A stretch of 64,000 nt of DNA from an uncultured Verrucomicrobiae bacterium (GCA_963755455.1 CAVWJH010000004.1:18076-82075); one strand, 5' to 3'; positions 4,324-45,743 are shown, numbered from the stretch's first letter. The notes: a model not told the origin generated them from the letters alone. Numbers and translations: made by a program.

Positions 4324-4789
4324 CAAAATTATTTTGCCGGAAAGAATCTGGATTCAAACCTGGCTGGGCTTGCGGGCGCGCGGTCATGGTGAAGTCGAGA
4401 GCGCGGCGATTTGGGGCGGCAAACGCAGTGGCCAAACCGAAACCGTCGAGGCGGTTTATTTTCTGGATGACCTTCCAGGTCATGTTCAGTTTTCGGGATA
4501 CCATCGGCTGCCTGAAAGCGATCTGGCCACGCTTTTTCATCGGCTCCAGCAGGACCAGCGGGTGATTGTCGGGGATGTTCATACCCATCCGGGGCGCTGG
4601 GTTGGATTATCCGGCTTGGACAAGGCCAACCCCATCGAATTTCGGCAGGGGCTTTATGCGTTCGTTTTGCCATCCTACGCCGTTCCAGAACCGTCGCTAG
4701 TTCAGGCTGGCGTCCACGAATATAAAGGCAACGGCCGGTGGAAAATGCTTTCGCAACGCGCCAAAAAAAATGTCATCAACATTGTTTAG
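4280..4789 (+). CDS. JAB/JAMM metallopeptidase (BilC-like deubiquitinase)
   Basis: E(VES)...HTHP...S..D JAMM motif (GDVHTHPGRWVGLSGLD). Confidence 0.88.
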   Translation: MIYSIRSIIRAAPSSKIILPERIWIQTWLGLRARGHGEVESAAIWGGKRSGQTETVEAVYFLDDLPGHVQFSGYHRLPESDLATLFHRLQQDQRVIVGDVHTHPGRWVGLSGLDKANPIEFRQGLYAFVLPSYAVPEPSLVQAGVHEYKGNGRWKMLSQRAKKNVINIV

Positions 4790-10215: not shown

Positions 10216-10289
10216 TGGAGCGGGTGAAGGGAATCGAACCCTCGTCTCAGGCTTGGGAAGCCCACATTCTACCATTGAACCACACCCGC
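10216..10289 (-). tRNA. tRNA-Gly(CCC)
   Basis: GCGGGTG acceptor stem, TT-CCC-AA anticodon loop, GGTTCGATTCC T-arm, encoded CCA. Confidence 0.95.
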
Positions 10290-10318: not shown

Positions 10319-13106
10319 TCATGTGTCAAGCGCGGCTATTGACTGACGCAACCTGCCTTCAATCACGGCCTGACGCTCCGGAGATTCCACCTTTCTGCCG
10401 TCGAGTTCGCGCACATAAAAACTGTCAATCGCCGCGCCGCGTTCGGTCACGATGCGCGCGCCGGCGATGTCCACCGCCAGTTCGGCGAAGGTCTGCGAAA
10501 TCGCGTAGAGCAGGCCAAGCCGGTCCTCGGTTTCGATTTCGATGAGCGTGCGCGTCTCGGAGGCTTCGTTGTCGAAAGTGGATTTGCGTCGCCATCCGCT
10601 CGCCCGCGTAGGGCTGATAAACCGGCGCGGTACGTGATCTGTCTGGCGATGAGCGCGCGGCAGATCAACCTCCTCGCCGTTCAGAACTTTTTCCAGCAGC
10701 CCGGCGAACTTGTCGTGCTGCTCGCGCGTGGCGAGGTTGCCGGTGCGCGCGTCGTTGACAAAAAAATTGTCGAGCGCAATGCCGTCGGCGCGGGTGAAAA
10801 TCTGCGCGCTCAAGATGTTCAGCCCGGCGGCGCTCAACGAGCCGGCGATTTTGCTGAACAGCCCGGCGCGGTCCCAGGTGCAGATTTTGACGAGGTTGTA
10901 GCCGCGGTCGGGTTCGTCCAGCCACGCGGTCACGGGCGAAAGAGCGCGGTCGTTTTCGAGGATCAGCCGGTGCATGAAACGGTGCGCGAGTTCGAGGTCG
11001 TCGAGAATTTCCTGCGCGGTGTGGATTTCAAAATAACGCGGCGGCAGCGCGGTGAAATGCGCGTCCAGTTCCTCGTCGCTGATTTGTGTTCGGCGCAAGT
11101 TCGCGGACTTCCTGCATGAGCGCTTCGCGCTGTTTCTTCCGACGGCGCGGAGGAATTCCGTGCCGCCGGTGAGCAGCGGCATCGCGCGCGAATGCAACTG
11201 CCAGAGCAGCGAATCCTTGAAGCCGTTCCACAAGCTTGTCGCTCGTGCCCTGCGAATCGGCGAACGTCAGCAGCGTCAGCAGGTTCAAACTCTCCGGCGT
11301 CTGGATCTGCCGCGCAAATTTTCGGATGACCGCCGCGTCGTCGAGGTCGCGCCGCTGCGAAAGGCTGGCCATGAGCAGGTGGTTTTCGATGATGAGCCGC
11401 AGCGTGTGCGACGCGGAGCCGTCCAGATGCAGCCGTTTGGCCGCGCGCATGGCCATTTCCGCGCTGACTTCCGGGATGGCCGCCTTTTTTGTGGTGCTCG
11501 GCTTTGCCGACGTCGTGCAGCAGCAGCGCGAGGTAAAGCAGGCCGGGCCGGTTCAAGCCTTGAAACAGCGGCGCGTAATTTTTATACGGCGGCTCCTGCG
11601 CCTCCCAGATTTTGTCGAGCTGTTCGAGGCAGACCAGCGTGTGTTCGTCGGCGGCGTATTGATGATAAAATTCGTGCTGCACGAGGCAGGTCAGCTTGCC
11701 GAATTCGGGAATGTATTTGCCGAGCAGGTTGACCTCGTGCATCGCGCGCAAAATCGGCGCGACTTCGCCGCGCCGTTCGAGGATGGTCAGGAACGTTTCG
11801 CGGACGTGCTCGTCGTTCAAAAAATCGCGGTCCACGAGCGAGAGCTGGTTGCGGATGAGCTGCGCGAGGTCGGGATGCAACTGCAGCCGCCGCTGCTGCG
11901 CGTGCAGAAAAACGCGCATGAGCCGGCGCGGCGAATCGCGGAAAATGCGGCTGGACGCGGCGTGGATTTCGCCGTCGATGAATTTGAAGCCGTCCACGGG
12001 TTCCGGTTCGCGGCTTTTCGGGCAGCCACGCGCGCAGCGAAAGCCTGCCTGGAGCGGCGCGACGAGCGCCATGCGCTGTTCCAGCGTGCGCGTGATGAGG
12101 AAAATGTTCCGCATGTGCGTGTAAAGGTCGCGCATGAATTTCTCGATGCGCTTGCTCGGCGAACGGTCGCCGTAGCCGAGCGCGTGCGCCACGGCGGGCT
12201 GCAGGTTTTTCCCCAGCACGTCGAGCGGCGCGGTCGACTTCGTAATGCAGTTCCGTCCGCACGCGCAGCAGAAAATCGTAGGCGGCTTCAAGCTGCTTGC
12301 GCTCGGCCTCGCTGACAAATTCCTGCCGTTCTGCAAGTCCGCCAGCGAGCGCGTGCGGTATTTGAAAAACGCCATCCACAACAGATTTTGAAAATCGCGC
12401 AGGCCGCCGCAGCCGTTCTTGATGTTCGGCTCCTGCATGCGTCGCCGAATTGCCGTATTTCGTGCGCCGCGTCGCCTGGTCTTCGAGGCGCATGGCGATG
12501 TATTTTTCCTCGAAGCCCGCGACGCATTTGGCCACGAGCGTCTTCTGGAATTTTTTGAAAAGCGCCTCGTCGCCGACAATCAGCCGCGCCTCGATGAGCG
12601 ACGTTTTGGACTGCATGTCCGTGTTCGCCACCTTCACGCAATCGTCAATGCTCCGCACCGCGTGGCCGACTTTCAGGCCGACATCCCAGAGCGGATACAG
12701 AACGCCGTCAATCAATTTGGACAGATGCGGCAGCGGCTTGTTCGCCGCGATCTGGCCGTCGTGCAGAAACATGAAGTCAATGTCGCTGTGCGGATTCAGT
12801 TCCGCGCGGCCGTAACCGCCGATGGCCACGAGCGCGAGCGGCGGAAATTCCTTTTGCGCCTGCGGTGACAAGGCCGCGTTTTCGACAGTGCCCAAAGATG
12901 CCGCAGCAGCGCGTCAAGCATCGCCGCGCGCGCCGCGCAAATTTCGCGCCCGCCCGCGCCCGCGCGATGCTCCATTTTCAGCCGGTGCGTTTCCACCTTG
13001 AGAAAACGCCTTGTAGCGCGCGAGTTGTTCCGCCGCGTCGCCGGTCGGCGGCAGCGGCAGACGCTCCGCCGCGTCGTTCTTGAATTTTTCTGATCAAATC
13101 CTGCAT
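10319..13106 (-). CDS. glnD: [Protein-PII] uridylyltransferase (several frameshifts in this sequence)
   Basis: AIGGYGRAELNPHSDIDF, EPNIKNGCGGLRD, HQYAADEH, LLHDVGK HD motif and two ACT domains, spread over several frames. Confidence 0.92.
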
Positions 13107-13244: not shown

Positions 13245-13841
13245 ATGGCAGTCCAACCCGACCCGGATGCCGGCCTGATGCTGCGCGTCAAGCGCGGCGA
13301 CCGCGCGGCGTTCACCGAGCTGGTCGAGAAATACAAGCAGCCGGTGATGAATTTTGTCTTCCGCTCGCTGCGCGATGAAACCGAGGCGGAGGACCTGGCG
13401 CAAAATGTTTTCCTGCAAGTCTTCAAATCCCGCGCCCGCTACGAACGCACGGCGAAATTTTCCACCTGGCTTTTCACCATCGCGCGCAATCTGTGCCTGA
13501 ACGAAATCCGCCGCCGCTCGCGCCATCCCGCCGAATCGCTCGAGGAAACGCACGCCGAACACGAAGACCAGCCGCAGCGGCAATACGAGGACAAAAAAGT
13601 TTTTCTGCCGACGGAAAATATGCTGCACGGCGAACTCGCCAAAAAAATTGATGAGGCGCTGGCCGAACTGCCGGAGAACCAGCGCACCGCCATTCTGCTC
13701 TGCCGTCAGGACGAGTTGAGCTACGAGGAAATCGCCGAGGTTCTGGACTGCTCGCTTTCCGCCACGAAATCGCTCATCCATCGCGGACGCGAAACGCTCA
13801 AGGAAAAGCTCAAGCCGTATCTGCAAACCGGCGAGTGGTGA
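13245..13841 (+). CDS. ECF sigma-70 factor (RpoE-like)
   Basis: AEDLAQNVF, FSTWLFTIARN, LSYEEIAEVL..S..KSLIHRGR. Confidence 0.93.
   Translation: MAVQPDPDAGLMLRVKRGDRAAFTELVEKYKQPVMNFVFRSLRDETEAEDLAQNVFLQVFKSRARYERTAKFSTWLFTIARNLCLNEIRRRSRHPAESLEETHAEHEDQPQRQYEDKKVFLPTENMLHGELAKKIDEALAELPENQRTAILLCRQDELSYEEIAEVLDCSLSATKSLIHRGRETLKEKLKPYLQTGEW
13787..13838 (+). repeat. 52-bp direct repeat copy 1 (3' end of the sigma gene); copy 2 at 18898-18949
   Basis: ACGCGAAACGCTCAAGGAAAAGCTCAAGCCGTATCTGCAAACCGGCGAGTGG; 46/52 identical to copy 2. Confidence 0.9.
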
Positions 13842-13927
13842 ACCGCGATGAAATTCCGAAAACCCGCCATTGCGAAACGGCGGGGATTTGCGATAGTGTT
13901 TTGCAATAGTTCAACCAAGGCAAAAGC

Positions 13928-14200
13928 ATGGCACAGGCAATCATGGATCCGGAAAAAGTGCGGCGGTTCGCCGAGGAACTGCAGCGCTTCAACAGCGACA
14001 TCGAGAACCGCATGACGCTGCTGCACGCGCGCTTCGCGGCGCTCGGCGACACATGGTCGGACCAGGAGCACGAGAAATTCGCCGTGGAATTCCGGCAGGC
14101 GATCAAGGCGTTGAAAAAATTTGTCGAGCTTTCCAAGGAACATACGCCTTACCTGATGCGCAAGGTGCAGCGCATTGAGGAATACCTGAACCAGCACTGA
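13928..14200 (+). CDS. WXG100/ESAT-6-like protein
   Basis: 90 aa, MDPEKVRRFAEEL start, central W-S-D turn, helical hairpin. Confidence 0.85.
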   Translation: MAQAIMDPEKVRRFAEELQRFNSDIENRMTLLHARFAALGDTWSDQEHEKFAVEFRQAIKALKKFVELSKEHTPYLMRKVQRIEEYLNQH

Positions 14201-14284
14201 CCTAAAACACTCTTCGTCATCCTCGTCCTCGTCCTCATGAATCAAAAACCGTGACGATGAGAATGAGGATGAGAATGAAAAACC

Positions 14285-14818
14285 ATGCCTGAAAAAGCCC
14301 AGATCACTTCGGTTGAAGCCATCGAGTCCTTCCGGGCGCAGCTCATCGTGTTTCTCGGCCAGGCGCGTCCCGTGCTGGAGGAGGCCGGAAACGAAATGTC
14401 GCGCACGCGGCTCTGGCTGCAGAACGAGCAGCGGATGTTCTGGGAAATTGACCTGCGCCGGCGCGAACGGCGGCTGGAGGAGGCGAAGCAGGAATTGTTC
14501 AACGCCAAGGTCTCCAGCCTGCCGACGGGAACCGCCGCACTTTTGCAGATGACGATGCAGCGGGCGCAGCGCGCCGTCCACGAGGCCGAGGCCAAACTCA
14601 AGCTCTTGAAACGCTGGGACACCGAGCTCGACAATCGCGCCGCGCCATTGATGAAGCAGATCGGCCAACTGCACGGATTCCTCGCCATGGACATGACGCG
14701 AGCCGTGGCCTATCTCGACCAGATTCTCCGGACGCTGGATGCCTACCGGAATGTCGGCACGTCCCGAGGCGAGACGTCCGTCGCCGCCGAACCGGAAAAA
14801 ACGGAGGAGAAAAAATGA
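14285..14818 (+). CDS. Helical coiled-coil protein of the WXG100 locus
   Basis: 177 aa amphipathic helices; its stop overlaps the start of the next gene. Confidence 0.75.
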   Translation: MPEKAQITSVEAIESFRAQLIVFLGQARPVLEEAGNEMSRTRLWLQNEQRMFWEIDLRRRERRLEEAKQELFNAKVSSLPTGTAALLQMTMQRAQRAVHEAEAKLKLLKRWDTELDNRAAPLMKQIGQLHGFLAMDMTRAVAYLDQILRTLDAYRNVGTSRGETSVAAEPEKTEEKK

Positions 14819-15027
14819 GCTTGAGCGGCAACCGGGGACGGCTCATCGGCCTGACGCGCGACATTTCGCTCCAATGGGACGAGACAAAAAATTACTGGCG
14901 CGACGCGAAGAGCGACGAATTCGAGCGCAAGTTCATGGTGGAACTTTCCGCGCACGTCAACCGCGCGACCATGGTTCTGGAACAAATGGAGGAACTTTTG
15001 AAAAAAGTGAGGAGCGACTGTGAATAG
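14815..15027 (+). CDS. Short WXG100-like protein
   Basis: 70 aa with a W-R-D turn (YWRDAKSDEF); overlaps both neighbours. Confidence 0.7.
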   Translation: MSLSGNRGRLIGLTRDISLQWDETKNYWRDAKSDEFERKFMVELSAHVNRATMVLEQMEELLKKVRSDCE

Positions 15028-18000
15028 CCTGCCCGGGGTCAACGAAACACTTGCGCTGCTCGACGCGCTCAAGGGCGTCGTCCGCGATTTCGTGGCTCGT
15101 GAGGAAAAGCTTGAAAGCAGATTCCGCGTTCTTTCTGCCGCAGAAGCGGACGCCTTTTCCACCCGGAGCCAGACGCAGGCCGAAGCCGCCGCCACGCGCG
15201 AAACAAACACGGCTGATGCGCTGGAAATGGAAAGGAAACGCCTCCAGTCCCGGTTTGAAAAACGCAGGGAGCGCATCAACCGCGCCAATGTCGCCGTCAA
15301 CCGGTGGGTGCAGGACGCAATCATACAATGCGACGCCGAATGGAAAGACCGCACGCAGGAAGGCGTGCAGGCGGCGGAACTCCGCCGCGCCGGGGAACTC
15401 ACCAATGCCACGGCAAACTTCAATGATTTCCAGCAAAATCTGACTGCCGCCGGCGAAGAATTGACGAAGTTGGAAATGGCGGCGCTCGGCGCATTTCGCG
15501 GCTACGGAAAATTCCGGCGGATGCTCGCGCCCGGCCGAAAATGGCCGGAGCCGGATTTGACGCCGGATGAAAATGCGCTTTTCAAAGAATTTCAAAAGCT
15601 CCAGTCGAAAATCGCCGGCGACTTGATCCGCTTCGGAAAATTTCCGCTGCCGCTGATTTTCAGATTCCTGCCCGTCTGGCTTTTGTCCGCACTGCTCCTC
15701 GCCGTCGCGGCGGCACATCCGGCCCTCGCACATTTTGGCCGGAACGACATCACGCAATTGGAAGCCAGCCTTGCGCTGGGGGCGTTTGTTCTGGTCGTCA
15801 TCATTTATTTTGCCGGCGGCCAGCTTGCCGCGTCGCTTGCAAAATCCATTGCCGGAGACCTGGCAAAAATGCGGCGGCTGTTTGATGCCTGCGCTGAAAA
15901 ATCCGCAGCGCATCTTCAATCGGAACAGGCGCGGTTTGATGATGAATTTGAAACCACCAGGAACAATTTCAACCAGGAATGGCGGCAGGCCGTCCGCAAC
16001 ATCAGCGAATCGCGCAGCGCCAATTCCACGGTCATCCGGGAGAAAGCCGCGCGGGTCTCGCAGAAAAACGAGCGCTGGTATCGCAAGGAGCTTGAGCAGA
16101 TTCAACCGCGCCACGCCGAAGCTGCGGCGCGATTGAAGGCGGAAGACGCCGCGCAAGTCCGGCAGATCGCCGAGGCGCAAAAGGCCAAAATGGCGCAGAT
16201 TGAAGACGAGCACCGGCGCGAACGGCAGGAATTGGAAACGGACTGGAATAACACCGTCACGCCGCTGTGCGAACAATTGCGCGCCGCAAACGACGCGGCG
16301 GAAAAAGCTTTTCCGGTGTGGAAAGACGCTTCATGGAAAAACTGGACACCGCCGCTGGAATTTCAAAACGCCGCGAAATTTGCGCGGCTGGAATCGCCGT
16401 TGGAAACATTTGCCGGCGCGCTCCCAAAAAACCCGCGCCTGAAATGGCCCGGCCCGGAAATCATTTCCGCGCCGCTGTCGCTGGTGTTTCCGGCGCAAGG
16501 CTCGATCCTTTTTGAAACCGGCAAGAGCAGCGGCGACGAGGCGTTCGGCGCGATCAATAGTGTCATTTTCCGGCTGCTGGCCACCACGCCGCCGGGGAAG
16601 TTGAGCTTTACGATTTTTGACCCGGTCGGCCTCGGCCAGAATTTTTCGTCGCTCATGCACCTCGCGGATTATGAGGAAGGCAGCATCAACAGCCGCATCT
16701 GGACGCAGCAGGCGCAGTTTGAGGAGAAGCTCGCGGAGTTGAACGAGCACATGGAAAAAATCATCCAGATGTATCTCCGCAACGAATACGCGACCATCGC
16801 GGAATACAACGCGCAGGCCGGCAGCATCGCGGAGAAATATCATTTCCTCGTCATCGCGTCCTTCCCGGTCAACTTCAGCGACACGGCGGCAAAGCGGCTC
16901 CGCAACATCGCCGCCAACGGCGCGCGTTGCGGCGTCTTCACGCTCATCCATTGGGACCAGTGGAACGCGGTGCCGCAGGATTTTGTGCCGGATGAATTGC
17001 GGAAAAATTCTGTCTGCCTCGTCCACACCAGCCGCGGTTTTGAACTGGCCGGCCAGCAGCAGCCGGGCGCGCGGCTCCTGCTCGATCCGCCGCCGCCGCC
17101 GGAATTCGCCACGGATTTTCTGCATCGCGTCGGCGAGGGCAGCAAGGACGCCAACCGCGTTGAAGTGCCGTTTGAACAAATTGCGCCGACCGAATTGTGG
17201 CAGGAAGAAACCACCGACCTGTTGCGCGTGCCGATTGGCCGCTCCGGTGCGACGAAATTTCAATATCTCGAAATCGGCGGCGGCACGCGCCAGCACGCTC
17301 TCATCGCGGGCAAAACCGGTTCCGGCAAATCCACTTTGTTCCACGTCATCATCACGAACCTCGCGCTGCGGTGCAGCCCGGAAGAAGTGGAATTTTATCT
17401 GATTGATTTCAAAAAAGGTGTCGAGTTCAAATGTTACGGCAGCCGCAAATTGCCGCACGCAAAAGTCGTCGCCATCGAGAGCGACCGCGAATTCGGCTTG
17501 AGCGTGCTGCAACGGCTGGACGAAGAATTGCGTCGGCGCGGCGATTTGTTCCGCAAGCTCGGCGCGCAGGACCTCGCCGGATACAAACGCGCCGGCGGAA
17601 CTGAACCGGTTCCGCGCACGTTGCTGATGATTGACGAGTTTCAGGAATTTTTCACCGAGGAAGACCGCATTTCGCAGGGCGCGGCGGTTTTGCTCGACAG
17701 AATTGTCCGTCAAGGCCGCGCGTTTGGCATTCACGTCATCCTCGGTTCGCAGACGCTTGGCGGCGCTTACACGCTCGCCCGCGCGACCATCGGGCAGATG
17801 GTCATCCGCATCGCACTCCAATGCAACGAGGCCGATGCGTATTTGATCATGGATCAGGACAATCCCGCGCCGCGCCTGCTCTCGCGTCCCGGCGAAGGCA
17901 TTTACAACGACGCGGCGGGCGCGCTGGAAGGCAACAGCCCGTTTCAAGCCGTCTGGCTGTCCGACAAAACGCGCGATGCTTATCTGGCGAAAATCCGCGA

Positions 18001-18892
18001 ACGCGCGGATCAAAAGGCGAATCAATATCCCGGCCCGCTGGTGTTTGAAGGCAACGCCCCGGCGGACGTGTGCGAAAATCTTCCCTTGCACGAGGCATTG
18101 GAAAAAACTGCAACGCAAATTCCCGTGCAATCGAGCGTCTGGCTCGGCGCGCCCAATTCCATCAAAGGCCCGACCGAGGCGATTTTCCGGCGGCAGAGCG
18201 GCAGCAATCTCCTCGTCGTCGGCCAGAGCGAGGAGCGCACGACGACGATTGTGGCGGTCTCGCTCATTTCGCTGGCGTCGCAGTTTCCGAAGGACGCCGC
18301 GCGGTTTGTTTTGCTCGACAGCACGCCGCAGGGATTTCCGCAGCGGGAATTTTTGGAGCGCATTGTCCGCTCCGTGCCGCACGAGACGGTTCAAGGAAGC
18401 AACAGCAGCCTGGCCGAAGTGATGAACTCGCTGGCGGAGGAATTGAAACGGCGCGCGGAAAATGAATCGTCCGGGCCGGAAATTTTCTTGCTGGTCAACG
18501 GATTGCAAAATTTCAAGAAGCTGCGGGCGGAGGACGAGTTCAGTTTTTCGAGCGGCAGCGGCGATGCGCTGAATCCCGCCGCCATTTTGTCGAGCCTCAT
18601 CACCGAAGGATCGGCGCGCGGAATCCACGTCATCATCACCTGCGACACTTACAACAACATGAGCCGGTTCCTGGGACGGAAGGCGCTGGGCGAATTTGAA
18701 ATGCGCGTGGTCTTTCAGATGAGCGCGAGCGACTCGGCCAGTTTGATTGACACGCCCGCCGCCGGCACGCTTGGGCTGCATCGCGCGCTGTTTTACAACG
18801 ACCGCGAAGGCAGCCTCGAAACTTTCCGTCCCTACGCGCAGCCGGACGGCGAATGGATTGAAAACGTCGCGCGGCAGCCGGCATTTGGGTAA
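15020..18892 (+). CDS. FtsK/SpoIIIE-family membrane ATPase (EccC/EssC-like)
   Basis: Coiled-coil N-terminus, two hydrophobic TM segments, intact AGKTGSGKS/IDEFQ/RQGRAFGIH domain flanked by two degenerate RecA-like domains. Confidence 0.9.
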   Translation: MNSLPGVNETLALLDALKGVVRDFVAREEKLESRFRVLSAAEADAFSTRSQTQAEAAATRETNTADALEMERKRLQSRFEKRRERINRANVAVNRWVQDAIIQCDAEWKDRTQEGVQAAELRRAGELTNATANFNDFQQNLTAAGEELTKLEMAALGAFRGYGKFRRMLAPGRKWPEPDLTPDENALFKEFQKLQSKIAGDLIRFGKFPLPLIFRFLPVWLLSALLLAVAAAHPALAHFGRNDITQLEASLALGAFVLVVIIYFAGGQLAASLAKSIAGDLAKMRRLFDACAEKSAAHLQSEQARFDDEFETTRNNFNQEWRQAVRNISESRSANSTVIREKAARVSQKNERWYRKELEQIQPRHAEAAARLKAEDAAQVRQIAEAQKAKMAQIEDEHRRERQELETDWNNTVTPLCEQLRAANDAAEKAFPVWKDASWKNWTPPLEFQNAAKFARLESPLETFAGALPKNPRLKWPGPEIISAPLSLVFPAQGSILFETGKSSGDEAFGAINSVIFRLLATTPPGKLSFTIFDPVGLGQNFSSLMHLADYEEGSINSRIWTQQAQFEEKLAELNEHMEKIIQMYLRNEYATIAEYNAQAGSIAEKYHFLVIASFPVNFSDTAAKRLRNIAANGARCGVFTLIHWDQWNAVPQDFVPDELRKNSVCLVHTSRGFELAGQQQPGARLLLDPPPPPEFATDFLHRVGEGSKDANRVEVPFEQIAPTELWQEETTDLLRVPIGRSGATKFQYLEIGGGTRQHALIAGKTGSGKSTLFHVIITNLALRCSPEEVEFYLIDFKKGVEFKCYGSRKLPHAKVVAIESDREFGLSVLQRLDEELRRRGDLFRKLGAQDLAGYKRAGGTEPVPRTLLMIDEFQEFFTEEDRISQGAAVLLDRIVRQGRAFGIHVILGSQTLGGAYTLARATIGQMVIRIALQCNEADAYLIMDQDNPAPRLLSRPGEGIYNDAAGALEGNSPFQAVWLSDKTRDAYLAKIRERADQKANQYPGPLVFEGNAPADVCENLPLHEALEKTATQIPVQSSVWLGAPNSIKGPTEAIFRRQSGSNLLVVGQSEERTTTIVAVSLISLASQFPKDAARFVLLDSTPQGFPQREFLERIVRSVPHETVQGSNSSLAEVMNSLAEELKRRAENESSGPEIFLLVNGLQNFKKLRAEDEFSFSSGSGDALNPAAILSSLITEGSARGIHVIITCDTYNNMSRFLGRKALGEFEMRVVFQMSASDSASLIDTPAAGTLGLHRALFYNDREGSLETFRPYAQPDGEWIENVARQPAFG

Positions 18893-18897
18893 TGATC

Positions 18898-18949
18898 ACG
18901 CGAAATGCGCAAGGAAAAACTCAAGCTGTATCTGCAAACTGGCGAGCGG
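18898..18949 (+). repeat. 52-bp direct repeat copy 2 (displaced sigma 3' end)
   Basis: Translates REMRKEKLKLYLQTGER versus sigma RETLKEKLKPYLQTGEW. Confidence 0.9.
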
Positions 18950-18961
18950 AATGAATGAGAA

Positions 18962-19294
18962 TTATCGGCCGGAAAATAAAATTTCGCCGTTTTTGATTTT
19001 ATGCAATTCTGCTTCCAAACTATCAATTATTGAAGGAGGAATGTCGCGTCGAGACCGAAGAAGCGGCAAACACACTTCCAAAATTAATTGCCGTTCCTCT
19101 TCTGAATTTTCTGCAATTGCAGGATTTATTGCAGAGCCGTCGCCACTCAATGTTTTTCCATCAAGCTTTCCAAGTTGAATAACTGTTCTGACAGAATCAG
19201 CTACAATCTCATCATGGTATCGTTTGATGTCGTAAACATAGGCAGTTAATTTTTCTCTGATTTTCGGAACGAGTTGGTTGATTGATGTATTCAT
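18962..19294 (-). CDS. Hypothetical protein, AT-rich
   Basis: 110-aa ORF in a visibly AT-rich segment. Confidence 0.55.
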   Translation of the reverse strand: MNTSINQLVPKIREKLTAYVYDIKRYHDEIVADSVRTVIQLGKLDGKTLSGDGSAINPAIAENSEEERQLILEVCLPLLRSRRDIPPSIIDSLEAELHKIKNGEILFSGR

Positions 19295-19462
19295 AATTTT
19301 TTATTCTTATTGGTTTTATCGTGCTCCACAAACGCGTGGAATGCAGCAAGGCTGGACAAACATATTCTGCTTTTCCTGTCAACTAAAATAATTTTGATTT
19401 TACCCTCGACCAAATTTACTGAATAAGATAAACATGGTAAACGCTGTGGAAATGAAATAGAA

Positions 19463-19960
19463 ATGAAAAAAGCGATTCAAAGTTTTTTATCAGTCGCAGT
19501 TGCCGTGATTTTTTTTACTGGATGCTCACCAGAACCTTCCACTGACGACGGAGAAAAGATTTTTCAAGATGAAATAAACAGCATTATACACCGAGACCAA
19601 ATTAAACTTGTCAGTTTTAAGAAAGTTAACGGCCAAGCAGGACAAATTACAAACCGAGAAGGAATGACCGTTCAATCTTATAGCTTGGAATATAGTGCTG
19701 AAGTTGAAGCTATTCAACGATGTGTAATTTCCATTGATAAAGAATCATTTTACACTTGGGGAGAAACTAATAGTGGCTTTAGCCTTTTCGACGACTTACA
19801 GCCAGAACAAATAGGACACGAATCTTGGGTTGATTGTGCAATAAAAATGAATTCCGGCCAACGATGTATAATTACTGGCACTATTATATTAGAAAAAACT
19901 GAAAAGGGATGGGCATATAATAAATTCAAAGCCGGTTATCTCCAAACAGAAATAAACTAA
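19463..19960 (+). CDS. Hypothetical lipoprotein, AT-rich
   Basis: MKK-hydrophobic-FFTGC lipobox. Confidence 0.7.
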   Translation: MKKAIQSFLSVAVAVIFFTGCSPEPSTDDGEKIFQDEINSIIHRDQIKLVSFKKVNGQAGQITNREGMTVQSYSLEYSAEVEAIQRCVISIDKESFYTWGETNSGFSLFDDLQPEQIGHESWVDCAIKMNSGQRCIITGTIILEKTEKGWAYNKFKAGYLQTEIN

Positions 19961-20123
19961 TATCAATAATTGCAGTAATTTATTTCTCCCGCTTCAAAAG
20001 AAATTCCGCCAGCGCTTCGGACGCGCATTTCATTCACCGTTGGATTTGCAAAGTGTGTTCCCGGCGGCGCGAAAGACCATCAAAAACCGGATTGGCGACG
20101 GCAAAATTTCTCGGCATGGACGA

Positions 20124-21944
20124 TTAACCAAGCCTTTCGCGCAAATAACCAAGCTGCTCGCACAGCGGCATTGGCAGGCGCGTGCCAAACTTGGCGTGAT
20201 AGGCATAGACGTCGTCGGCTTCTTTTTTCCAGCCGGCGGCCGTCCACCGCGAGCAGTTGCGCCAGATTTTCGGCGGGCAGGTTCAGGCCGGACAAATCCA
20301 GCGCGTCGGGCGTCGGCAGATTTCCAATCGGCGTCAGTTGCGCCTTGCCCGTGCCTTCGACGCGTTCGCAAATCCATTTCAGCACGCGGGAATTTTCGCC
20401 GTAGCCGGGCCAGAGGAATTTTCCGTCCGCGCTCTTGCGGAACCAGTTGACGAAATAAATTTTCGGCAGCTTGTTGCGGTCGGTGCGTTGCGCGAACGAC
20501 AGCCAGTGCGCAAAATAATCGGCCATGTTGTAGCCGCAGAACGGCAGCATGGCAAACGGATCGCGCCGCAACACGCCCGCCTGGCCGAGCGCGGCGGCGG
20601 TCGTTTCCGAACCGCAAGCCGAGCCCATGAAACACGCCGTGCTTCCCAATCGAAGGCTTCGTTCACGAGCGGAATTGTGTTCGGGCGGCGTCCGCCAAAA
20701 AGAATCGCCGAGAGCGGCACGCCTTCGGGATTCTGCCAGTCGGGATCAATCACCGGACATTGCGACGCGGGCGCGGTGAAACGCGAATTCGGATGCGCGC
20801 CTTTTTTGCCGCTCGCTGGCGTCCACGCGTTGCCTTCCCAATCAATGCCATTTTCCGGCGCGGGAACGCCCATGCCTTCCCACCACACGTCGCCGTCCGG
20901 CGTCAGCACGACGTTGGTGAAAATGGTGTTCTTCGCGCACGACGTCCAGCGCGTGCGGATTGGATCTGGATTGAGGTGCCGGGCGCGACGCCGAAAAATC
21001 CGGTTTCCGGATTCATCGCGTAAAGCCGTCCGTCCTCGCCGATGCGAATCCACGCGATGTCGTCGCCGAGCGTCGTCACCTTCCAGCCGGGCAACGTCGG
21101 CTGCATCATCGCCAGATTGGTTTTTCCGCACGCGCTCGGAAACGCCGCCGCGAGATAATGTTTTTTCCCGGCGGGCGAAGTCAGGCAAAGGATCAGCATG
21201 TGCTCCGCCATCCAGCCTTCGTGTTCTGGCGACGGACGAAGCGATGCGCAGCGCGAGACATTTTTTGCCGAGCAGCGCGTTGCCGCCGTAGCCGGAACCG
21301 TAGGACCAGATCGAAGGCTCGTCGGGAAAATGGACGATGAATTTTTTCTGCGGATCGGGTTCGCACGGCCACGGAACATCTTTTTGTCCGGGTTGCAGCG
21401 GCGCGCCGACCGAGTGCATGCACGGAATAAAATCTCCCGTCCGCGCCCAGCTTTTCCAAAACGTCCGCGCCCATGTGCGTCATGATTCGCATGTTCACGA
21501 CGACGTAAGGCGAATCGGTGATTTCAATTCCGATTTTGCAGATCGGCGAATCCAGCGGCCCCATCGCAAACGGAATCACATACAGCGTGCGGCCTTTCAT
21601 GCAGCCGTTGAACCGTTCGAGCATCGTCTTTTTCATCTCGGCCGGATCGGCCCAATTGTTCGTCGGCCCGGCTTCGTCTTTCGTCTGCGAGCAGATGAAA
21701 GTCCGGTCTTCCACGCGCGCCACGTCGCTCGGATGCGAGCGCGCGAGAAAGGAGTTCGGGCCGCAATTTTTCGTTCAGCTTGATGAACGTGCCGTGCTCC
21801 ACCATCAAGTCGCAGAGCGATTGGTATTCCGCGTCCGAGCCGTCGCACCAATGCACGCGCTGCCGGCTGGCAAAGTCGCGGCCATTTCCTGAACCCAGGC
21901 GATGAGTTTTGGCTGTTGATGGCGGTTCGATGTTTTGTCGGCAT
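20124..21944 (-). CDS. pckG: GTP-dependent PEP carboxykinase (frameshifted in this sequence; start approximate)
   Basis: [56 protein letters not shown]. Confidence 0.93.
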
Positions 21945-22076
21945 ACATAATTTTCATTCCTTGCACGAAAACTGACGCAGATGTGCCAGGCCGGTTTGAA
22001 CAGTCGCAAAAATTGCATTTCACTGCGTTTCTTTTGCGTGCGCCGCGCCCGGCTGTTATGCTACAGATTTAACGGC

Positions 22077-44630: not shown

Positions 44631-44987
44631 ATCCCCGCGCTGGACGATATTGCCCTCTGTCCCTGCGGCGACCCGGCCAACGCCCCGATCCGCGCCGAGT
44701 CCAAGCTGCCGGCGGACCGCTCACTGAAGTAAATTTGAAGGCTACCTTTGGTTCCGCCAACAAGATTTGAGCCGGGACAAGGAATATCCCATGAGTGAAA
44801 CCTCAAACCTCAAGTTGAAATTGATTTGAGTCTTAAACCCACGCCAGCATTTTTCTGAAAAAAAATTCAGAAAGGCAAATGCGGTCTTGGCTTGCCTGTG
44901 AATTTCGTGCTAAACTGAACCCCATTTGTTGCCGGGGTTGTTCATGTTTGACTTCCTCAAGGTGAGATAAATCACAAGTTGGAAACG

Positions 44988-45743
44988 ATGACAAAGCATA
45001 TATTAGCCATATTCGCATCCGCCATTTTTGCCGGAAGCTGTTTCGGCATTGCGGTCGCCCAGACCAATTCGCCCGCCGCCATGGAAACCAACCTGCCGCC
45101 CAAGTGGGAAGGCACCGTTGCGCTCGGCCTCACCGCGACTGCGGGCAACAGCGACAGCGTGATGTTCACCGGAAAGATTCAAGCCCACAGGAAATCGCCG
45201 TTGAACGAGTTCACTTTGGGCGGAGACGCAGCCTACGGCGAAACGGATTCCATAAAAAACAATGAAACCCTGCACGGCTTCGGGCAATACAACCACCTGT
45301 TCAGCGACCGCTGGTATGGTTATGCGCACGCCGAAGCGCTGCACGACGGCATCGCGGACGTGAAATACCGCTTCACCTTCAGCCCCGGCGCGGGATATTA
45401 CTTCATCAAGACACCGCAAACATCGCTCGCGGGCGAGTCCGGCCCCGGCGTCCTGTATGAAAAACTGGACGGCGGATACAACACCTATGCCACGCTGCGC
45501 CTGGCCGAACGCTTTGAACACAAATTCGACGCTCACGCGCGCCTCTGGCAAAACGTGGAAGTTCTTCCCGAAGTTGACCAGCCGGATAATTTTCTGATCA
45601 ACTTTGAAATCGGCGTGGAAACCCCGCTCACACATAAAATCAGCCTGCAAGTTTATGTGGACGATAATTTCGCGAACGAACCCGCACCCGGACACAAGGA
45701 CAACGACGCGAAACTGGTCAGCGGACTGGTCTATAAATTTTAA
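44988..45743 (+). CDS. DUF481/YdiY-like outer-membrane beta-barrel protein
   Basis: Signal peptide, WEG.VALG.T..AGNS, C-terminal LVYKF beta-signal. Confidence 0.78.
   Translation: MTKHILAIFASAIFAGSCFGIAVAQTNSPAAMETNLPPKWEGTVALGLTATAGNSDSVMFTGKIQAHRKSPLNEFTLGGDAAYGETDSIKNNETLHGFGQYNHLFSDRWYGYAHAEALHDGIADVKYRFTFSPGAGYYFIKTPQTSLAGESGPGVLYEKLDGGYNTYATLRLAERFEHKFDAHARLWQNVEVLPEVDQPDNFLINFEIGVETPLTHKISLQVYVDDNFANEPAPGHKDNDAKLVSGLVYKF

Follow-up and report, generated by a model that had tools for sequence, protein, structure and literature searches.

We describe here a four-gene module of an uncultured Verrucomicrobiae bacterium from soil, found by reading of open reading frames (ORFs) at positions 13928-18892, all on the + strand, of a window of 64,000 nucleotides (nt), this being the whole stretch of contig CAVWJH010000004.1 that was analysed. 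The module encodes a WXG100-family protein of 90 amino acids (aa), a 177-aa helical hairpin, a 70-aa protein and a 1290-aa ATPase of the FtsK/SpoIIIE family that resembles EccC and EssC of type VII secretion systems (T7SS). With modest confidence, we consider it a minimal mobile T7SS-related module that would export helical hairpins across the inner membrane in an ATP-driven manner. By its sequence the locus belongs to the experimentally untouched class of solo WXG genes accompanied by a three-domain ATPase that was noted by Zhang et al. (2012). As the initial annotation of this DNA had described, the four genes are co-oriented and the last three overlap, by 4 nt between the 177-aa and 70-aa genes and by 8 nt between the 70-aa and ATPase genes, and an 84-nt gap follows the 90-aa gene. 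None of the four ORFs is disrupted, and most relatives have them intact as well.

The 90-aa protein reaches 37.3 bits against the Pfam family WXG100 (PF06013, cut-off 27.3) and just 23.4 bits against NCBIfam TIGR03930 (cut-off 44.85). Instead of the canonical W-x-G, which is absent, it has W-S-D at residues 43-45 (nt 14054-14062), W43 and D45 being invariant in 36/36 aligned homologues. Its profile finds HP0062 of Helicobacter pylori as top match in the PDB (3fx7, 6e-9, residues 1-89), followed by EsxB entries (8e-6 and weaker) and Staphylococcus aureus EsxA (0.009). HP0062 (PDB 3fx7 and 2gts) likewise replaces W-x-G, by W-R-D, and is a dimer built as a four-helix bundle, according to the description in PMC3397514, and it is mentioned to cluster with the FtsK/SpoIIIE gene HP0066 (PMC3397514, PMC4978471). 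Both are proteins of about 90 aa without signal peptide, with W-x-D and a clustered FtsK/SpoIIIE gene, in diderm hosts, although of different phyla. At E<=0.1 the only match to PF06013 in the host genome is the 90-aa gene itself, a solo WXG without fusion to a toxin. A relative of the ATPase is encoded in 551 genome stretches, and our locus counts rest on the best 80; the 90-aa gene is 68-92% identical across 72/80 of these loci, and public annotation names its homologues 'WXG100 family type VII secretion target' or 'YukE'.

The ATPase matches Pfam FtsK_SpoIIIE (PF01580, E 6.6e-33), and the NCBIfam models EccCa, EccCb and EssC give partial matches that lie far under their whole-protein cut-offs. 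Its EccC-like nature, proposed in the initial annotation, was found again in both sequence and fold. A sequence search of the PDB places T. curvata EccC (4nh0, 4.4e-35) on top, then EccC5 and YukB, with FtsK ranking after these. Residues 450-1290 were modelled by AlphaFold2 from 30 homologues (predicted local distance difference test, pLDDT, 82.5), yielding three alpha/beta P-loop-like domains, and Foldseek ranks EccC 4nh0 first for this model (2.2e-30), then ATPases 2-3 of EccC and EssC, and then the FtsK motor. By VIA-align, 704 residues superpose on residues 445-1315 of EccC (D1-D3), and the last domain fits EccCb1 D2/D3 with Z 20-22 and EssC D3 with Z 17.7. This structural resemblance of the third domain to EccC/EssC D2/D3 is accompanied by a match to EccCb1 6j19 at E 0.013. 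Walker A (GKTGSGKS, 764-771) and Walker B (MIDEFQ, 870-875) occur in the middle domain only, and G764-T772, D872 and E873 are invariant in 8 ATPase homologues of 50-74% identity. Both flanking domains are without the lysine and the acidic pair, the first one matching PF01580 at E 0.0015, under the cut-off. By these motifs the middle P-loop domain is the only catalytic one.

Motifs and model, together with a Kyte-Doolittle scan, agree with the initial description of two transmembrane (TM) helices, one intact Walker A/B domain and two degenerate ones. The hydrophobic segments, at about residues 208-239 and 243-275, are the sole ones of the module, none being present in the three small proteins, and the same two are found in an ATPase homologue from another class. 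They are separated by a short loop and flanked on both sides by K/R-rich sequence, which fits an in-in hairpin with almost nothing exposed to the periplasm. Before and after this hairpin, residues 1-205 and 280-445 are rich in A/E/R/L/Q; from this composition and a match to the model of the ZorA tail, long coiled coils are predicted in both regions.

Taken as single domains, the ATPase domains fit the FtsK motor and the TcpA coupling protein equally well as EccC (Z 22-23.6). Together with the membership of the FtsK/SpoIIIE family, this would also suit a DNA translocase of a mobile element, which would pump double-stranded DNA between cells like actinomycete TraB for its own transfer, with the helical proteins as accessories. 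Nevertheless, three tandem P-loops, one of them active, beside a WXG100 gene are what is seen in EccC/EssC, EccC is the best match over the whole length, and Pfam detects no DNA-binding domain. We regard a DNA translocase as very unlikely.

The two remaining small proteins are of a different standing. The initial annotation had counted three WXG100-like proteins; this stands for the 90-aa protein, which is over the Pfam cut-off, and not for the 70-aa and 177-aa proteins, which have no significant similarity. Neither of these two belongs to a Pfam or NCBIfam family or has a relevant profile match in the PDB. In the 70-aa protein W21, W28, D30 and C69 are invariant, and W28-R-D30 is kept in 41/41 homologues, so that the W-x-D reported for both the 90-aa and 70-aa proteins is a constant feature of each family; its C-terminus reads ...DCE in order-level relatives. 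The hhalign comparison with the 90-aa profile is insignificant (E 0.073), with an alignment that spans the W-x-D motifs, and 1/41 homologues matches PF06013, at a weak E of 0.079. The nearest named cluster in the ESM Atlas is a WXG100 family (0.83), which we take as a lead only. The 177-aa protein was modelled by AlphaFold2 with helices at 3-77 and 81-160 (pLDDT 92.8), a hairpin about twice the length of WXG100. Foldseek returned for this model generic long hairpins only, none at E<=1e-3. This large family comprises 2408 representative clusters at E<=1e-3, with 1637 at <=1e-10 and 223 at <=1e-30. Against the WXG100 (90-aa) profile it gives an insignificant E of 0.094, and no LXG or WXG similarity is detectable by sequence profile. 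YscO, a stalk family of the type III secretion system, matches weakly in 11/126 homologues (best E 6e-4), and the 177-aa profile finds in the PDB nothing relevant to WXG100, LXG, EspB or PE/PPE, with V-ATPase subunit D at E 0.26-1.1; both matches may reflect coiled-coil composition alone. A complex prediction of the 90-aa and 70-aa proteins with the 177-aa protein as partner scored 0.71 vs 0.74 in a control with chain 1 replaced, and was not used as evidence. On profile comparison, kinship with WXG100 is demonstrated for the 90-aa protein alone.

The four genes are inherited together. Among the best 80 loci the 90-aa gene is present in 72, the 177-aa gene in 73 and the 70-aa gene in 74. The 8 loci without at least one small gene comprise 3 in which the contig ends upstream of the ATPase gene, 4 with unrelated sequence upstream of it, one of which still has the 70-aa gene about 6 kb off, and 1 that is without the 90-aa gene only. 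The block thus occurs far beyond chance. The ATPase is present in 14/18 other genomes of the genus, in 4/12 other families of the order and in 11/400 genomes sampled across the phylum, some of them in other classes at 40-51% identity. All four genes, overlapping in the same way, were also met in another class (L111), where their identities are 53, 24, 27 and 40%. In the ESM Atlas the clusters nearest to the 177-aa and 70-aa proteins are mostly from Planctomycetota, a lead for which the Atlas is the sole basis. Viral contigs gave a single weak partial relative of the ATPase (27% identity, residues 704-911) and no module.

Some loci depart from this arrangement. Two from another class, L112 (G319) and L117 (G199), have an ATPase gene (40% identity) that is not preceded by any small genes we could recognise, L117 having sulfate adenylyltransferase-like genes in their place, and in one genome of the genus (G018:C7:126728-130425) the ATPase gene is broken into three, one of the pieces containing 5 in-frame TGA codons, likely a pseudogene. 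In the window itself, a glnD-like gene (10319-12895, -) and a phosphoenolpyruvate-carboxykinase-like gene, pckG (20080-22018, -), are each broken into several overlapping frames. The host assembly has 4 contigs and 3.79 Mb with a completeness rating of 65.6%, a low value despite the few contigs that is probably due to many frameshifted genes; the split glnD and pckG genes and this rating suggest many indel errors, as in long-read assembly, or pseudogenes. The module could be seen in this context as a decaying, non-working remnant of a larger T7SS or island, given the many broken genes nearby and the few related loci in which the ATPase stands apart from the small genes or carries stop codons. 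But the four ORFs have stayed intact in this genome as in most relatives, their order is kept across classes and the ATPase motifs are invariant in the 8 aligned homologues, which makes a remnant extremely improbable.

The module is also a discrete, horizontally moved unit, as had been proposed, and its borders can be placed within a few bases. It lies at the 3' end of a gene for an extracytoplasmic function (ECF) sigma-70 factor, a single-copy core gene present in 54/60 other genomes of the genus (one of the 60, G469, is unpublished). Two copies of a 52-nt direct repeat, 88% identical, bracket the module (Table 1). The right copy runs into a native-like tail and stop as in the relatives, and can therefore be taken as the displaced original end of the gene. 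DNA synteny with the closest sigma loci breaks at 13838 in 11/11 of those examined, with no module gene beyond; since the sigma gene is without the block in all 11 of these relatives, the block is an inserted cassette. In agreement, DNA similarity to 85 other module loci is restricted to 13847-18894. A test for flank repeats on 75 loci gave a score of 37 here, while 295 mismatched flank pairs used as controls had a mean of 9.5 (sd 1.3, max 20). Another locus, L049, scored 22.5 with a duplicated piece of the folP 5' end: a 45-nt imperfect repeat at 4694-4739 and just past the ATPase stop, part of the folP-like 5' coding region. We conclude that the 5.1-kb block at 13839-18897 is a cassette whose insertion into the sigma gene's 3' end left a duplication of 52 nt. 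Its GC content is 0.59 vs 0.58 of the surroundings. The insert contains no recombinase, relaxase, replication or integrase gene. The window as a whole is likewise free of integrases, and the closest match to PF00589 on its contig is at C4:91698, beyond its limits. Mobility without an own recombinase would suit the DNA translocase considered above, whereas the lack of relaxase, replication and integrase genes speaks against it. A promoter/terminator scan, whose total counts were about the shuffle expectation, revealed no promoter-like site in the stretch from the sigma stop to the 90-aa gene. No RNA run was among the 20 listed sequencing runs with sampled words in common, whose shares were small (0.07-0.10).

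Table 1. Coordinates of the module, its domains and the insertion site, counted from the first letter of the window.
Feature	Position	Strand	Remarks
90-aa gene	13928..14200	+	WXG100-family, HP0062-like subtype; Pfam and profile match to PDB
177-aa gene	14285..14818	+	long antiparallel two-helix hairpin (predicted), variable C-terminal tail; no family
70-aa gene	14815..15027	+	no family; start and stop overlap both neighbours
1290-aa gene	15020..18892	+	GTG start; EccC/EssC-like FtsK/SpoIIIE ATPase, membrane-anchored
TM hairpin	15641..15844	+	residues ~208-275; Kyte-Doolittle maxima 2.25 and 2.29
First P-loop-like domain	16367..17149	+	residues 450-710; degenerate: ETGKSS; FLVIAS without acidic pair
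Middle P-loop domain	17222..17899	+	residues 735-960; intact Walker A 17309-17332, Walker B 17627-17644
Third P-loop-like domain	18017..18889	+	residues 1000-1290; degenerate: VVGQSEER; FLLVNG
ECF sigma-70 factor gene	13245..13841	+	insertion target, outside module; Sigma70_r2 4.7e-20, Sigma70_r4_2 1.9e-18
Left repeat copy, 52 nt	13787..13838	+	now forms sigma gene 3' end
Right repeat copy	18898..18949	+	displaced native sigma 3' end; native-like tail and stop to 18958

Other features of the insertion site deserve mention. To the right of the cassette, positions 18950-20050 have a low GC content (0.37 vs 0.56 in the window) and carry two orphan ORFs, one of 110 aa (18962-19294, -) and one of 165 aa with a lipoprotein-like N-terminus (19463-19960, +), neither of which has a Pfam or PADLOC match or was found in related module loci. 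In L119 (G453), a close relative, a near-identical second sigma 3' end (2038-2094 and 2514-2570) lies 419 nt downstream of the gene and is followed by a TIR-like gene and a pentapeptide-repeat gene. It looks as if the 3' flank of the sigma gene were a hot spot at which insertions recur. The only tRNA gene of the window, tRNA-Gly (CCC) at 10216-10289 (-), is not adjacent to the cassette, being 3.6 kb away on its left side.

The module stands alone, without a conserved neighbour. Leaving aside the genes of the module and ORFs antisense to them, no family of flanking ORFs is present in more than 15/80 loci, and the Pfam families seen most often in the 140 immediate neighbours are protein kinase (9), Pterin_bind (7) and DUF2167 (6), with phage integrase in 2; in the flanks of L031-L110 a Ser/Thr protein kinase is the commonest immediate neighbour (9/140). 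The host genome has one EccC-like gene besides the true ftsK. At its rated completeness of 65.6%, it contains at E<=0.1 0 matches to EccB (PF05108), EccE (PF11203) and the YukD/EccD ubiquitin-like family (PF08817), the MycP and EccD membrane families not being part of this search, and 0 matches to YukC/EssB (PF10140) and EsaA (TIGR03929), EssA likewise not being included. The stand-alone character claimed initially is in line with these counts, 0 matches in the genome for the five accessory families searched. The outer-membrane barrel that had been pointed out in the host is encoded at 44979-45743 and matches DUF481 (E 1.6e-41).

These neighbourhoods also bear on the alternative of a non-secretory conflict or defence machine, acting at the membrane or in the cytoplasm, for example by sensing of invaders and perturbation of the membrane. 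In such a machine the 177-aa protein, instead of being cargo, might serve the ATPase ring as its stalk or regulator. The patchy distribution (14/18 in the genus, 4/12 families, 11/400 in the phylum) and the mobility of the cassette would be expected of such a machine, and the weak YscO (11/126, best E 6e-4) and V-ATPase subunit D matches of the 177-aa protein would be compatible with a stalk, if they are more than composition. In turn, the neighbours of about 75 loci are mostly housekeeping genes, and when the 140 immediate neighbours were searched with PADLOC the 9 protein kinases accounted for every match, so the antiphage defence that had been suggested as one possible function finds no support in the genomic context. 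The module proteins themselves match in PADLOC only the P-loop of the SspH, mad8 and HerA models and a ZorA tail segment, that is, a generic FtsK/HerA P-loop and a coiled-coil tail. Moreover, the 90-aa protein is highly conserved, unlike fast-evolving sensors, and there is no effector domain. We judge a conflict machine unlikely.

Distant relatives of the ATPase, of 27-31% identity, are present on 5 plasmids, and the two considered here are from Proteobacteria. In the deposited annotation of Caballeronia pSBC2-5 the order is VWA, WXG100, 436-aa, 113-aa, 76-aa, ATPase (927 aa), CARF, VWA, PP2C and kinase, and in that of a Helicobacter plasmid it is 89-aa, HNH endonuclease, SMI1/KNR4, 77-aa and ATPase (823 aa). 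The 89-aa proteins of these plasmids are clearly related to the 90-aa family (hhalign 99.5% for Caballeronia and 98.4% for the other) and have the motifs W-Q-D and W-G-D, and the Caballeronia ATPase is collinear with that of the module (28% identity over three domains). The 70-aa and 177-aa profiles showed no similarity to the small proteins of either plasmid locus, including the Caballeronia 76-aa and 436-aa proteins. The company of VWA, PP2C, kinase and CARF in one plasmid, and of HNH and SMI1/KNR4 in the other, agrees with a conflict function, as does the absence of TM segments from the plasmid ATPases. The membrane anchor and the long N-terminal region therefore mark the form found in the Planctomycetota-Verrucomicrobiota-Chlamydiota (PVC) group versus its TM-less plasmid relatives. 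WxG-FtsK genes associated with the TerY-P triad were described by Anantharaman et al. (2012), as referred to in PMC4978471. The Caballeronia plasmid locus of this type shares with the module the WXG100 gene, the collinear ATPase and a 76-aa ORF that overlaps the ATPase start as the 70-aa gene does; it differs in that no conserved VWA/TerY, PP2C, kinase or CARF gene stands beside the Verrucomicrobial module and in its TM-less ATPase. The Helicobacter plasmid differs by the HNH and SMI1/KNR4 genes between its WXG and ATPase genes and, again, by an ATPase without TM segment.

The class itself is not new, in contrast with what the initial annotation implied. Genes of this kind were noted by Sutcliffe (2011), as cited in PMC10765036 and in PMC6471051, the latter listing Verrucomicrobiae among the taxa that have them. 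Zhang et al. (2012) describe solo WXG genes with a distinct YueA/EccC-like ATPase of three domains, "only the middle one active" (PMC3482391, Table 1 footnote 6), in hosts that include planctomycetes and verrucomicrobia, and call them "mobile versions of T7SS". On the PVC module we found only this footnote and general remarks in PMC10765036 and PMC6471051. The locus agrees with their class in having a single WXG100 gene, three P-loop domains, with the middle one alone intact, and a verrucomicrobial or planctomycete host. Mobility, the further trait of the class, is seen in the 52-nt repeat, the empty sites in 11/11 relatives, the varied contexts and the relatives on 5 plasmids. As far as the footnote goes, it is silent on the two further small proteins, the N-terminal coiled-coil and TM extension and the insertion mechanism.

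In a broad sense the module has what is expected of a T7SS, namely a WXG100 protein at the locus and a membrane-bound FtsK/SpoIIIE ATPase with tandem P-loop domains. It shares with T7SSa (ESX, Actinomycetota) the WXG100 gene beside a membrane-bound tandem FtsK-like ATPase, the best matches to EccC and a C-terminal domain like EccCb1 D2/D3. It differs in that the active domain is the middle of three, in the long regions of predicted coiled coil before and after the TM hairpin, in the absence from the host genome of EccB, EccE or YukD-like matches in a search without the MycP and EccD membrane families, and in the Y-x-x-x-D/E motif of that system, which was not seen on reading the three small proteins. 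With T7SSb (Ess/Yuk, Bacillota) it has in common the structural match to EssC D2-D3/D3, the sequence match to YukB and a WXG100 protein of the homodimer type; the differences are the lack of YukC/EssB, YukD/EsaB and EsaA matches (EssA was outside the search), of FHA and of a toxin domain. One long and two small helical proteins recall the LXG toxins of T7SSb and their Lap partners, by analogy only.

On the export reading, to which we return here, the ATPase ring would be set in the inner membrane by the two-helix hairpin, as in its FtsK and EccC relatives, and would be driven by the middle P-loop domain, which its motifs show to be the one that hydrolyses ATP. The degenerate, EccC D3-like C-terminal domain may recognise a helical-hairpin client, and the signal-less 90-aa protein, a probable dimer, would be carried over the inner membrane to the periplasm, as would the equally signal-less 177-aa and 70-aa proteins, which are translationally coupled. 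The four genes travel jointly as a cassette. Several observations weigh against this proposal. The same Kyte-Doolittle scan that finds two hydrophobic segments in the Verrucomicrobial ATPases finds none in both plasmid ATPases, and given these TM-less relatives membrane translocation may not be what the class in its entirety does. Encoded in the module is neither a toxin or other obvious payload nor a periplasmic or outer-membrane part. For the 70-aa and 177-aa proteins in particular, pairwise profile comparisons among the three small-protein families were all insignificant. As the host genome is only 65.6% complete, accessory genes could have been missed. Finally, the review in PMC10765036, citing Sutcliffe (2011) and Unnikrishnan (2017), presents the few WXG100 sequences beside an FtsK/SpoIIIE protein in Gram-negative species as functionally unconfirmed.

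A stronger version of the proposal is possible, which we hold as tentative and rather doubtful: among type VII-like translocases that are self-sufficient, the PVC form may be the simplest. Four proteins would suffice, the twelve TM helices of the ATPase ring would alone make up the channel, the three hairpins would form one client or plug complex recognised by the degenerate C-terminal domain, and the unit would spread as a recombinase-less cassette, with a duplication of about 50 nt from the end of the targeted gene.

Research on T7SS has been centred on Actinomycetota and Bacillota, where the ATPase requires several phylum-specific membrane partners, and the role of the pair of WXG100 and EccC-like proteins in diderms has been a long-standing question since it was first noted. 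Nothing known is overturned by this locus. It offers a clean and intact example, with borders defined within a few bases and a gene set that is kept from genus to phylum, and it adds two further, obligatory-looking partners, the 177-aa and 70-aa proteins. With its intact genes, defined borders, conserved gene set, two partners and membrane anchor, it is well suited for initial experiments at the bench on this class. If the reading as simplest translocase were true, the export step of T7SS type could be reconstituted from one ATPase, and the role of such machines in diderm bacteria would be revealed.

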